Shown in pieces: positions 34,435-37,998 of a DNA stretch of 64,000 bases (positions within the stretch are counted from its first letter, which is position 1; the number at the start of each line of letters is the position of its first letter). This stretch comes from Escherichia coli. Lineage in GTDB: Bacteria; Pseudomonadota; Gammaproteobacteria; Enterobacterales; Enterobacteriaceae. The stretch lies in NCBI RefSeq assembly GCF_013315695.1, contig NZ_CP054353.1, one strand, 5' to 3'. The translations under genes were made by a program, and so were the position numbers. The notes under the pieces are model-generated. The model worked only from the letters and a program-made list of their open reading frames with translations. It made no database searches and was not told where the DNA came from.

Positions 34435-36221
34435 TTATGGGAAACCTGAATGAAACAGAAAAGTGGGAAGAAAATATCTATCAACTGGAGACATCAGATC
34501 CGGTTCTGGGTGGTGCAGACGGGATATCAAATCGAGCCCCCCGGCAACTGGCAAACAGGACGAAATGGCTGAAGAAAAAAACGGAGGAAGCCGCACAGTC
34601 ACTGGCTGAACACGTACGTTCCCGTAACCACCCGGACGCGACACTGACAGCTAAGGGGTTCACCCAACTGAGCAGTGCCACCAACAGCACCTCTGAAACG
34701 CTGGCCGCCACACCAAAAGCCGTCAAGGCTGCATACGACCTTGCAGCCGGCAAGGCGCCCGTCAGCCACACTCACCCGTGGAGTCAGATAACGGGAGTGC
34801 CTGCTGCCTCGCTGACGGCAAAAGGCACCGTACAATTGAGCAGTGCCATCAACAGCACGTCTGAAATACTGGCCGCCACACCGAAGGCGGTCAAGGCTGC
34901 ATACGACCTTGCAGCCGGCAAGGCGCCCGTCAGCCACACTCACCCGTGGAGTCAGATAACGGGAGTGCCTGCTGCCTCGCTGACGGCAAAAGGCACCGTA
35001 CAACTGAGCAGCGCCATCAACAGCACGTCTGAAACGCTGGCCGCCACACCGAAAGCGGTCAAGGCTGCATACGACCTGGCAGCCGGCAAGGCGCCTGCCA
35101 GCCACACTCACCCGTGGAGTCAGATAACGGGAGTGCCTGCGGCTTCACTGACGGCAAAAGGCACCGTACAACTGAGCAGCGCCACGGACAGTCAATCAGA
35201 AACTGAGGCTGCCACGCCGAAGGCGGTCAAGGCTGCATACGACCTTGCAGCCGGCAAGGCGCCCGTCAGCCACACTCACCCGTGGAGTCAGATAACGGGA
35301 GTGCCTGCTGCCTCGCTGACGGCAAAAGGCACCGTACAACTGAGCAGTGCCATCAACAGCACGTCTGAAATACTGGCCGCCACACCGAAAGCGGTCAAGG
35401 CTGCATACGATCTGGCAGCCGGCAAGGCGCCCGTCAGCCACACTCACCCGTGGAGTCAGATAACGGGAGTGCCTGCTGCCTCGCTGACGGCAAAAGGCAC
35501 CGTACAACTGAGCAGTGCCATCAACAGCACGTCTGAAATACTGGCCGCCACACCGAAAGCGGTCAAGGCTGCATACGATCTGGCAAACGGAAAACAACCG
35601 GCAGATGCCACGCTCACTGCTCTGGCAGGACTTGCCACTGCAGCAGATCGGTTGCCTTATTTTACCGGAGCAGACCGCGCAGCGCTGGCAACCCTTACAG
35701 CTATTGGTCGCGCTATTATCGCTAAGGGCAGTATAAAAGATGTCCTCAATTACCTTGGTTTGGGGGAAGGCTCTGCATTGCCTGTTGGTGTACCGGTTCC
35801 GTGGCCCACCGCCACACCGCCAGCAGGCTGGTTACAGTGCAACGGAGCTACGTTCACCAAAGAACAATATCCTGTTCTGGCCAGAGTCTACCCGACCCTC
35901 CGTCTTCCCGATTTACGCGGTGAGTTTATCCGTGGATGGGACGGTGGTCGCAAGGTTGATACCGGGCGTGCGCTACTTTCATTTCAGGAAGGGACTATCG
36001 TATCCGGTTTTGATGATAATGATACCGGAGATATCAGTTCGCTCGGCTCTACACAATACGGATTTGGTGACGCTTTAACCTCTAATCAACTGGGGGTCAT
36101 AAATGGCAAAAAGTGGATATTTGATGCATCCTCTAAAGGTGCACAAAGATATGACTGGTGGGCTTATGTATCAGCTCGCCCCCGCAATATCGCATTTAAC
36201 TATATCGTGAGGGCGGCGTGA
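34431..36221 (+). CDS. Tail fibre protein with six tandem repeats and an invertible C-terminal domain
   Basis: 596 aa; six 56-aa repeats (..TAKGTVQLSSAINSTSE.LAATPKAVKAAYDLAAGKAPVSHTHPWSQITGVPAAS..); C-terminal ~130 aa lie within the Gin-invertible segment. Confidence 0.8.
   Translation: MIMGNLNETEKWEENIYQLETSDPVLGGADGISNRAPRQLANRTKWLKKKTEEAAQSLAEHVRSRNHPDATLTAKGFTQLSSATNSTSETLAATPKAVKAAYDLAAGKAPVSHTHPWSQITGVPAASLTAKGTVQLSSAINSTSEILAATPKAVKAAYDLAAGKAPVSHTHPWSQITGVPAASLTAKGTVQLSSAINSTSETLAATPKAVKAAYDLAAGKAPASHTHPWSQITGVPAASLTAKGTVQLSSATDSQSETEAATPKAVKAAYDLAAGKAPVSHTHPWSQITGVPAASLTAKGTVQLSSAINSTSEILAATPKAVKAAYDLAAGKAPVSHTHPWSQITGVPAASLTAKGTVQLSSAINSTSEILAATPKAVKAAYDLANGKQPADATLTALAGLATAADRLPYFTGADRAALATLTAIGRAIIAKGSIKDVLNYLGLGEGSALPVGVPVPWPTATPPAGWLQCNGATFTKEQYPVLARVYPTLRLPDLRGEFIRGWDGGRKVDTGRALLSFQEGTIVSGFDDNDTGDISSLGSTQYGFGDALTSNQLGVINGKKWIFDASSKGAQRYDWWAYVSARPRNIAFNYIVRAA
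34644..35651 (+). repeat. Six tandem copies of a 168-bp in-frame repeat within the tail fibre gene
   Basis: Unit starts at 34644, 34812, 34980, 35148, 35316, 35484; near-identical units with a few substitutions. Confidence 0.85.
35755..35834. repeat. Left inverted repeat of the invertible tail-fibre segment (contains candidate recombination site)
   Basis: 80-bp sequence ttggtttgggggaaggctctgcattgcc...cagcaggctggtta is the reverse complement of 37280..37359. Confidence 0.8.
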
Positions 36222-36227
36222 TACCGT

Positions 36228-36842
36228 TCAGCCGGCAAGCGCCAGTGGCGCTTCCGGCCAGCTGATTTCAGGTGCCTTGCTGATATCCAGTGCGTTCAGC
36301 TCGTCGATATAATCCAGCACGGCGTTCAGTTTTGCCGTTTCTTCTGGTTTCAGACTGCGACCTGCCCGCAGTTTGAGGTTGATGAGGTCGATGGACTTCA
36401 TCGCCTGATCCACCCGTTTCTGGCGTTGCAGTCTGGCAGTCTCCAGCTCTGCGGCTCTATGCCGTTCAGTATCAGTTACCCACGCTTCACCGTTCCAGGT
36501 ATCCCATGGTGTGGCAGGCTGTTTTGTGGTGGTGTCCGCCGGGTAATCACCCGGTTGGGTAATCAGAACGGGGTTACCGTTCTCCGTGCTGTATACCGTC
36601 TCGCCGCGGTGATCAGGCACATGCTCCCACCCGTTCAGCGTGGCAGTCCGGCAAACCACGTAACCCGAAATTGCCTCCGGCGGTGCATCGGCGCACGAAT
36701 GTGCCGGAGTACCCACCCCAAGGGCGAGATACTCCACAGAGGATGAGGTGTATTCCCGGGTTTCCTCGTCATAGTGATATACAGTGATATCGCCCGCTAC
36801 AGTGGCGATACCGTTTTCATCCAGAACTGCAGTGTTACTCAT
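36228..36842 (-). CDS. Tail fibre assembly protein (Tfa/U-like), inside the invertible segment
   Basis: 204 aa on the strand opposite to the expressed fibre gene, immediately downstream of the alternative fibre C-terminus. Confidence 0.65.
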   Translation of the reverse strand: MSNTAVLDENGIATVAGDITVYHYDEETREYTSSSVEYLALGVGTPAHSCADAPPEAISGYVVCRTATLNGWEHVPDHRGETVYSTENGNPVLITQPGDYPADTTTKQPATPWDTWNGEAWVTDTERHRAAELETARLQRQKRVDQAMKSIDLINLKLRAGRSLKPEETAKLNAVLDYIDELNALDISKAPEISWPEAPLALAG

Positions 36843-37354
36843 TAAACTGCCCTCACAATGTAATTAAGTGCAATGCTACGGGGTCTGACAGTGATACCCT
36901 TCGCATACCCGCTTCTGATAGAGGTCAGAATAGTAGCCTGCATACCATTGTCTGACATTGCCATGACAGGATCGCTGAATGTTGTCCCGTCCGGCATTTT
37001 AAAGCTGCCCTCACGAAGGTCTGTAATGGAATCTTCATTGTTGAATCCCATGCCGACTATCCCCGAGGTTCCCGTAGTGTCCTGGTTATAATAATCCAGC
37101 ATTGCTGTTCTTAACAGCGTTGCCCCTTGTGCGGACAGCAACTTACGTCCTGTATCAACTTTGCGCCCGTCGTCCCATCCACGGATAAACTCACCGCGTA
37201 AATCGGGAAGACGGAGGGTCGGGTAGACTCTGGCCAGAACAGGATATTGTTCTTTTGTAAAGGCGCGCCCGTCGCACTTTAACCAGCCTGCTGGCGGTGT
37301 GGCGGTGGGCCACGGAACCGGTACACCAACAGGCAATGCAGAGCCTTCCCCCAA
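36842..37354 (-). CDS. Alternative tail fibre C-terminal domain (silent in this orientation)
   Basis: 170 aa beginning MGEGSALPVGVPVPWPTATPPAGWL, nearly identical to the segment of the expressed fibre encoded by the left inverted repeat; both variants end NYIVRA(A/V). Confidence 0.7.
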   Translation of the reverse strand: MGEGSALPVGVPVPWPTATPPAGWLKCDGRAFTKEQYPVLARVYPTLRLPDLRGEFIRGWDDGRKVDTGRKLLSAQGATLLRTAMLDYYNQDTTGTSGIVGMGFNNEDSITDLREGSFKMPDGTTFSDPVMAMSDNGMQATILTSIRSGYAKGITVRPRSIALNYIVRAV

Positions 37355-37359
37355 ACCAA
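37280..37359. repeat. Right inverted repeat of the invertible tail-fibre segment
   Basis: Reverse complement of 35755..35834, one mismatch near the inner end. Confidence 0.8.
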
Positions 37360-37425
37360 CGTTTATCTCTCAAATCCTCCCCACATTATCTCAGTACTTT
37401 AACCACTCAAAAGGGAGTATTTTTA

Positions 37426-37998
37426 ATGCTGATTGGCTACATACGTGTGTCAACAAATGACCAAAACACAGATTTGCAACGCAAAGCATTAATGTGCGCA
37501 GGATGTGAACAGATTTTTGAGGACAAAATGAGCGGAACCAAGTCGGAACGTCCAGGCCTGAAACGCGCTTTAAAGTGCCTTAAAAGAGGGGATACATTGG
37601 TGGTCTGGAAGCTGGATCGGTTGGGTAGAAGAATGAAACACCTCATTGCTCTCACAGAAGAGCTACGCGCAAAAGGTGTCAATTTTCGCAGTCTGACGGA
37701 TTCAATCGATACCAGCACTCCGATGGGAAGGTTCTTTTTTCATATGATGGGTGCACTGGCAGAAATGGAGCGTGAACTGATAGTTGAGCGCACGCTGGCA
37801 GGACTGGCTGCTGCGCGAGCACAAGGGAGAGTTGGAGGACGTCGCCCGAAACTGACGAAGGAGCAGCATGAGCAGATCGCAAGATTGCTCCAGAAAGGGT
37901 ATGACAGAAAGCGGCTGGCAATTATCTATGATATTGGACTGTCAACGATCTACCGCTACCACCCTGTTGGGACTGTCATAACGCAACCTGAAATGTAA
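37426..37998 (+). CDS. gin: Gin/Pin/Hin-family DNA invertase (serine recombinase)
   Basis: 190 aa from ATG 37426 (RBS aagggag); N-terminal MLIGYIRVSTNDQ with catalytic Ser, C-terminal HTH; adjacent to the inverted repeats. Track ORF extends to 37297. Confidence 0.85.
   Translation: MLIGYIRVSTNDQNTDLQRKALMCAGCEQIFEDKMSGTKSERPGLKRALKCLKRGDTLVVWKLDRLGRRMKHLIALTEELRAKGVNFRSLTDSIDTSTPMGRFFFHMMGALAEMERELIVERTLAGLAAARAQGRVGGRRPKLTKEQHEQIARLLQKGYDRKRLAIIYDIGLSTIYRYHPVGTVITQPEM

Follow-up and report, generated by a model that had tools for sequence, protein, structure and literature searches.

A Pin/Min-type inversion switch with a single Tfa gene at the tail-fibre locus of a BcepMu-like Escherichia coli prophage

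Results

Tail-fibre genes within and around a pair of inverted repeats

We analysed a stretch of 64,000 nucleotides from the Escherichia coli contig NZ_CP054353.1 (assembly GCF_013315695.1), referred to here as the window, in which an initial annotation had marked a Gin-type invertible tail-fibre segment. At this locus a tail-fibre gene reads into a segment of 1,605 bp (35755..37359, measured from one central crossover dinucleotide to the other and delimited by in-silico inversion) that holds, in order, the fibre tip A on the plus strand, a single Tfa chaperone gene on the minus strand and a silent tip B on the minus strand, with the gene for a serine DNA invertase just outside. We consider it very likely, with a probability of about 0.9, that this element is an active inversion switch of the Pin/Min type (Gin family) that changes the host range of the prophage. 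Tip A, the Tfa gene, the silent tip and the invertase gene had been placed correctly by the initial annotation, all of their coordinates matching the list of open reading frames (ORFs) and the sequence.

The expressed tail-fibre gene runs on the plus strand from 34431 (TTG) or 34437 (ATG) to 36221, an ORF that PGAP also annotates as a coding sequence in L001, a near-identical record. In this gene a constant part ending at 35754 is continued by tip cassette A (35755-36221). The product has six Pfam matches to Phage_fiber_2 and a Collar domain (PF07484, E 1e-14) at residues 453-500, and PHROG tail fibre families match it as well. Its shaft is encoded by 168-nt (56-aa) tandem repeats at 34642..35613 on the plus strand (family D1, 87-100% identity, Phage_fiber_2), the copy number of which varies among strains: the fibre is 596 aa long in the window and 528-530 aa long in the sister prophages L002 and L016. 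The annotation pipeline presents the fibre gene of sequence type 131 (ST131) records as split, “incomplete” pieces; that of L002, likewise annotated as split, reads as a single intact ORF.

Silent tip cassette B lies on the minus strand at 36842..37359 (ORF 36842-37354, 170 codons) and is of the collar type (PHROG 523, tail collar fibre, E 7e-66). The Tfa gene, a member of the TfaE family, is found on the same strand at 36228..36842 (Caudo_TAP, PF02413, E 3e-26; PHROG 105, E 1e-86). Its start ATG overlaps the stop of tip B (TAATG) and it is predicted to be translationally coupled to cassette B; at its other end, 6 bp separate its stop from that of tip A. The Tfa protein is 59% identical to TfaE of e14 and 26-29% identical to U and U' of Mu over about 70 residues. 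Neither Tfa nor tip B matched a family in NCBIfam, and a PDB sequence search with Tfa gave chance hits only.

Both tips end in NYIVRA(A/V), as the initial annotation had noticed. The tip has in common with the T4 gp37 tip (2XGF, E 6.5e-13) the N-terminal collar part and the last strand, with 2XGF ending ...NIAFNYIVRLA, and it is also similar to T4 gp12 chains. Since the collar part and the last strand are common to gp37, the variable 70-100 residues form an insertion inside the collar, like the gp37 needle. These residues presumably set receptor specificity, and a switch of receptor upon inversion would be expected from what is known of the family.

A repeat finder detected a single long inverted repeat in the region 33000-40000, with arms of 229 nt at 35752..35980 and 37134..37362 that are 90% complementary. 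Base-by-base comparison of the arms confirmed the 80-bp core described in the initial annotation (35755-35834 and 37280-37359), which is 100% identical; beyond it lie a divergent patch of ~23 nt, ~90 nt of near-identity and then divergence. The left arm covers the N-terminal, conserved stretch of the collar domain, and both arms encode LGEGSALPVGVPVPWPTATPPAGWL. A chance origin of an 80-bp perfect inverted repeat was ruled out, being impossible in 64 kb. A terminator-like hairpin with a T-rich tail is located at 36319-36348 on the plus strand, ~100 nt past the tip A stop and antisense to Tfa. It might stop late transcription when the fibre ends in tip A, but such hits are no commoner than in shuffled sequence.

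That the segment carries one assembly gene only, as the initial annotation had claimed, was borne out by the ORFs and by tblastn, in which only 36228-36842 matched. With five queries (the window Tfa, Mu U, U', TfaE and TfaP), no second Tfa homologue was found in the whole 64-kb window. The initial annotation had named a second assembly gene on the plus strand of the segment as a finding that would speak against its claim; we searched for one and none is present. The same tblastn search led us to reject a Tfa gene hidden elsewhere in the prophage.

Crossover sites and the invertase

Two 26-bp crossover sites bound the segment. The left site, at 35743..35768, reads TCCTCAATTACC-TT-GGTTTGGGGGAA with its central TT at 35755-35756, and the right site, at 37346..37371, reads TTCCCCCAAACC-AA-CGTTTATCTCTC with its central AA at 37358-37359. 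They are imperfect palindromes of the form 12-2-12, in inverted orientation and with the same central dinucleotide (TT/AA); as its reverse complement, in the orientation of the right site, the left site is TTCCCCCAAACC-AA-GGTAATTGAGGA. For comparison, the right site of e14, read from the e14 record L007, is TTCTCCCAAACC-AA-CGTTTATGAAAA, and the right-hand gix site of Mu, read from the Mu record L006, is TTCCTGTAAACC-GA-GGTTTTGGATAA. The right site of the window and that of e14 agree at 11 of the 12 inner-half positions and at all of the first 7 positions in the outer half. The perfect identity of the repeat arms begins exactly at the central dinucleotide of the sites, as predicted by repeated exchange at that point.

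The invertase gene (37426..37998, plus strand) lies outside the segment and belongs to the Gin/Pin/Min family of serine DNA invertases (PHROG 125, DNA invertase, E 3e-94). The protein of 190 aa begins with MLIGYIRVS..., in which RVS is the catalytic-serine motif, and matches the chains of the Mu Gin crystal structures 3UJ3 and 4M6F with E ~1e-92. Mu Gin and e14 PinE are each 76% identical to it; at the DNA level, the identity to Mu gin over the first 240 nt is likewise 76%.

Gin and Hin act as serine recombinase dimers that, together with a Fis-bound enhancer, make a 2-bp staggered cut and rotate the strands by 180 degrees. By the same mechanism, the invertase would bind both inverted 26-bp sites, exchange strands at the central dinucleotide and flip the 1,605 bp, and a dependence of the switch on Fis and an enhancer would be expected from its family. 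In the present state, the constant fibre gene reads into the segment and ends in the collar-type tip A. In the inverted state, the fibre would end in tip B, Tfa would be co-translated just downstream and A would become the silent copy.

The spacer between the right site and the invertase start (37372-37425) falls into two sequence classes across the loci compared. Symmetric systems with two Tfa genes (Mu, e14, L010 and L017) share a ...TGGCAT(C/G)AT... motif followed by a T-run, and the spacers of single-Tfa arrays, including those of L014 and L015, differ from this motif. On the minus strand of the BcepMu-like spacers, TGAGATAAT has an extended -10-like appearance and points into the segment.

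Natural isomers of the segment

The anatomy of the segment, the in-frame fusion and natural isomers are directly observed. When the 1,605 bp were flipped in silico, positions 34431-38075 of the window became colinear with the locus of strain MS 21-1 (L003) over 3,645 bp, at 99.92% identity with 3 mismatches and no gaps; in native order, the two aligned as three pieces, the middle one reversed. The in-silico junction between the constant part and tip B has a 100% identity match in MS 21-1, where cassette B continues the constant part in frame and is the expressed tip. MS 21-1 and L001, which is almost identical to the window, agree in the protein accessions of Tfa and invertase, and the MS 21-1 prophage occupies a different chromosomal site. 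Together with the 76% identity of the invertase to Gin and PinE and the 26-bp sites, these naturally inverted isomers uphold the initial description of a Gin-type invertible tail-fibre segment.

We then took a census of junctions in 5,426 complete E. coli genomes. The constant part was joined to tip A in 165, to tip B in 283 and to a further tip, C, in 169; these counts are inexact, as pieces up to about 830 bp apart were joined and the states constant-C-A and constant-C-B were counted twice. The ST131 sister prophage next to aroA was found in three states (AR_0058, MB1159 and PV468777). Reversible inversion has also been confirmed by polymerase chain reaction (PCR) in ST131 wound isolates, in prophages named Entero_P88 and Entero_BP_4795 (bioRxiv 10.1101/2022.05.07.487787), and PV468777, which carries the switch in its sequence, bears the Entero_P88 name. 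Prophages of enteropathogenic E. coli (EPEC) show similar variation, including a Mu prophage and a system with three repeats and four variants (Goldberg et al. 2014, PMC4272514).

The repeats might instead be a frozen relic, in a prophage whose segment no longer inverts, and this isolate is known from its assembly. However, the reading frame of the invertase is intact and identical to that of strains with the opposite orientation, both sites are perfect from the central dinucleotide inward, and the reciprocal isomer exists at 99.92% identity. We therefore regard a relic as very improbable.

A two-cassette member of the collar-cassette arrays

Among known systems, the closest relative of the switch in the window is the P segment of the cryptic prophage e14 with its invertase Pin (E. 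coli K-12, stfP-tfaP / tfaE-stfE-pinE). The two have in common a crossover at the LGLGEG codons, near-identical sites with the same AA/TT centre and an invertase just outside the segment, and StfE of e14, likewise of the collar type, shares about 60% identity with tips A, B and C. The e14 segment differs in being symmetric, with two tips of unrelated type and one Tfa each, whereas both tips in the window are collar-type and share one Tfa; furthermore, e14 is a lambdoid remnant, whereas the host of the window switch is a transposable BcepMu-like phage.

The multiple-inversion system Min of plasmid p15B was reportedly described by Sandmeier, Iida and Arber 1992. Min-type arrays (the P1-like L015 and L008, the latter being vB_EcoM-673R5, which is heavily frameshifted and was used for architecture only) draw on the same pool of collar cassettes, with A-type cassettes about 89-90% identical and the same type of site. 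They too have a single TfaE-family gene inside the invertible DNA and an adjacent invertase, but they contain 5-7 sites and cassettes, in contrast to two in the window and three in its sister prophages.

The Mu G segment resembles the window in that a constant fibre gene reads into the invertible segment, in its 12-2-12 sites and in the position of the invertase at the right end of the phage. Yet it is 3 kb long and symmetric (Sv-U / U'-S'v, as read from NC_000929), each tip having its own assembly gene; its tips are not of the collar type (no significant similarity), and its central dinucleotide is TC/GA. A comparison with the Mu, P1-like and e14 segments, as the initial annotation had proposed, thus places the e14 P segment and the Min-type arrays, not the Mu G segment, nearest to the window.

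Compared by description, the P2-like “shufflon” of EPEC E2348/69, which has three partly homologous inverted repeats, four variants and three C-termini (PMC4272514), follows the same logic as the three-cassette sister prophages L002, L004 and L005. It differs in its backbone and in the length of its inversions, which are ~2.2 and ~1.8 kb as against ~2.05 and ~1.6 kb. The gp37-gp38 genes of T4 and the Stf-Tfa genes of lambda share with the window the collar part, the NIAFNYIVR motif and a Tfa of about 200 aa (PMC9659904); they differ in that the chaperone gene reportedly always lies directly downstream, unlike at tip A, which has no adjacent one.

The three-cassette sister prophages, in which the invertase and Tfa are those of the window, come in four arrangements. 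L002 has the constant part joined to A, then Tfa, B and C in the opposite orientation and then the invertase gene, and L004 has the constant part joined to C, then A in the same orientation, then Tfa and B in the opposite one. In L005 the constant part is joined to D, with B and Tfa following in the same orientation and E in the opposite one, and in L016 it is joined to X, followed by Tfa, B and A in the opposite orientation. A P2-like prophage (L014) carries one expressed and four silent collar cassettes, and a P1-like element (L015) carries one expressed and six silent cassettes; with its two sites and two tips, as against five to seven in P2-like and P1-like relatives, the window is the minimal two-cassette form of this cassette system.

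Every array examined had exactly one TfaE-family gene, coupled to one cassette inside the flipping DNA. One Tfa for several (2-7) collar tips is therefore the rule for this cassette pool. Two Tfa genes were found only where the alternative tip is not of the collar type, namely in e14, L010, L017 and Mu. The contrast drawn by the initial annotation with the symmetric layout of Mu consequently stands as far as the asymmetry goes, but the rarity that it implied does not, a single Tfa being usual in Min-type collar arrays.

Collar cassettes (A-type 86-90% identical, C-type 91% identical, and StfE-type) circulate among P2-like, P1-like and BcepMu-like elements of E. coli; the loci concerned (L014 3505-7676, L015 4001-8462 and L016 4001-7198) all have the LGLGEG crossover point. 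Cassette B has TTCTCCTAAACC as its inner half-site in three-cassette relatives (L002 4738-4763) as opposed to TTCCCCCAAACC in the window (37346-37371), the latter being the same as for cassettes A and C. This difference suggests gene conversion between repeats, or that recombination between cassettes in direct repeat gave rise to the two-cassette form.

Chaperone supply to tip A

In the present state the fibre ends in tip A, with the only Tfa gene on the opposite strand. We lean towards a single TfaE-type Tfa acting as a generic chaperone for all collar-type tips. The N-terminal halves of Tfa proteins are 55-75% identical between groups, as against only 30-54% for the variable parts of the tips; an StfE-type tip is coupled to Tfa in e14 and has none adjacent in L015; and the Tfa of lambda can replace T4 gp38 (cited in PMC9659904). 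Along with the occurrence of two Tfa genes only beside tips of another type, this pattern favours recognition of the collar family over recognition of the individual tip.

Our leading, though tentative, guess at how such a Tfa would be made in the A state is an orientation-independent supply by leftward transcription from the invertase side. From the topology, Tfa would be within reach of any leftward promoter on that side in all states in which the late promoter fails to reach it. Speculatively, TGAGATAAT (minus strand, 37395 to 37387), an extended -10-like sequence read by eye just outside the right site, could drive B and Tfa.

Several observations weigh against the switch as we interpret it, including this shared supply. 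The census was drawn from consensus assemblies, and inversion is known from strains other than this isolate. A simple Fis-motif scan for an enhancer gave no hits in the window, nor in Mu or pinE; as Mu itself also scored nothing, the scan was without discriminating power. No sigma-70-type promoter was detected on either strand at 35600-38150, terminator-like hits there were no more frequent than by chance, and the sole candidate for leftward transcription, TGAGATAAT, was spotted by eye only. Furthermore, a homologous Tfa gene lies directly downstream of the tip in each non-invertible relative examined (HK97, HK106, a P2-like phage, pro483, and phages of Klebsiella and Citrobacter), and tip A may on these grounds truly lack a partner that it needs. 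In the gp37/Stf family, a Tfa gene directly after the tip is stated as a general rule (PMC9659904).

A-type tips are found with and without a Tfa gene of their own. Symmetric P2-like loci have one directly downstream of the A-type tip, both in Enterobacter (L010, tip 78% identical) and in E. coli (L017, about 90% identical in the variable part), and the two Tfa proteins are 49-55% identical to that of the window. Homologues of the variable part of tip A are all cassette-sized, at about 150 aa; one A-type homologue, P0015, comes from Xenorhabdus. For A-type cassettes without an adjacent Tfa, the ratio of nonsynonymous to synonymous substitution rates (dN/dS) was 0.14-0.23 for the cassette as a whole and 0.13-0.44 within its variable part. 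These values indicate that the Tfa-less cassettes are under purifying selection and not decaying, with the caveat, again to the detriment of our interpretation, that the counts are small and that cassettes move between architectures.

Tip A may alternatively need no chaperone in cis: it would fold unaided or with general host chaperones, or borrow a TfaE-family protein from another prophage, and Tfa would serve only the tip to which it is coupled. We hold this to be nearly as likely as a leftward supply of Tfa, each at less than even odds. It is consistent with the position of Tfa within flipping DNA, where roughly half of the assembled states have it antisense to the fibre gene, with the purifying selection on cassettes that have no Tfa beside them, and with the function of Tfa across phages, as seen when lambda Tfa substitutes for T4 gp38 (PMC9659904). 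TfaE-family genes are also widespread in E. coli. In the 5,426 genomes, the Tfa allele of the window was the best match, at least 95% identical, in about 600 records, including the pandemic clone ST131, and TfaE-family genes at 60-80% DNA identity were the best match in 1,711 further records. However, the median among genomes matching the window Tfa was one Tfa-like place at the DNA level, and a helper prophage is thus not guaranteed. The A-type and StfE-type tips that have their own Tfa directly downstream, and the same arrangement in all non-invertible relatives examined, also argue against folding without a partner in cis.

Fibres of this kind are said, by North et al. 2019, to need their cognate Tfa. 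If that held for tip A, its orientation would be an OFF or defective state, either in an on/off switch of infectivity or in a degenerate derivative of a symmetric ancestor that has lost the Tfa of tip A. The Tfa given to A-type tips in the symmetric L010 and L017, the failure of the promoter scan to detect a promoter for Tfa in the A state and the need for a cognate Tfa stated in the literature (PMC9659904) would all fit. Nonetheless, hundreds of genomes and three unrelated phage backbones have kept the layout with one Tfa, the A-type cassettes in arrays have dN/dS well below 1, and the Tfa-less alleles are diverse (A, C, D and E), all with intact reading frames. We hold an OFF state to be unlikely, and prefer a generic Tfa that would serve the collar tips of both orientations.

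Host prophage and distribution

The switch is located at the right end of a prophage of ~37.5 kb (587..38075) that lies within dgcQ and is flanked by duplicated target sequence, ACTGG(T). The reading frame of dgcQ breaks off after its N-terminal part, at ~586, and continues with its C-terminal part from ~38079; the left end of the prophage was located through the dgcQ reading frame, as the reverse complement of the right end failed to find it. The cellulose regulator DgcQ, a diguanylate cyclase, is consequently interrupted in this strain. Early genes lie on the minus strand, with a transposase at 6722-8491, a MuB-like gene at 5545-6750 and Gam at 4715-5245 (PHROGs 310, 296 and 491), and P2/Mu-type baseplate and tail genes lie on the plus strand. 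Relatives occupy varied chromosomal sites, including rstB, aroA, ssuB and a phosphotransferase system (PTS) IIA gene, and the related phage PhiKM is classified as Bcepmuvirus. The transposase, MuB-like and Gam genes, the target duplication, the variable insertion sites and the classification of PhiKM identify the element as a BcepMu-like transposable phage.

A human blood isolate matches the window at 99.9%. The deposit of PhiKM (L012, PQ738613.1, “partial genome”, 4507-5466) stops within the fibre gene and the segment and invertase are absent from it; its assembly probably collapsed at the repeats or at mixed orientations.

Discussion

The switch belongs to a common prophage family that is annotated in hundreds of genomes and in which inversion has been seen experimentally. 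Since single-Tfa arrays are common and inversion at the ST131 sister locus had already been shown by PCR, the initial annotation was correct but describes a less surprising finding than it seemed. The asymmetry of the segment is real but typical of collar-cassette arrays and, apart from the chaperone question, the mechanism is a textbook one.

Genome assemblies freeze an arbitrary state of such a switch, and in annotation pipelines the silent cassettes come out as pseudogenes or under the name “phage tail protein”. As the tip cassettes come from a pool common to P1-like phage-plasmids and P2-like prophages, the switch would shape which strains these elements reach.

How tips that have no Tfa gene beside them are folded matters for the rules by which tip swaps are designed in phage therapy and in tailocins. 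It is conceivable, if somewhat unlikely, that collar tips of the gp37/Stf family need no cognate, co-transcribed chaperone, whether because a generic TfaE is supplied in both orientations or because they fold free of Tfa. If so, a large pool of cassettes shared by P1-like, P2-like and BcepMu-like phages would break the rule of one downstream chaperone per tip, and the swapping of tips in phage or tailocin engineering would become simpler.

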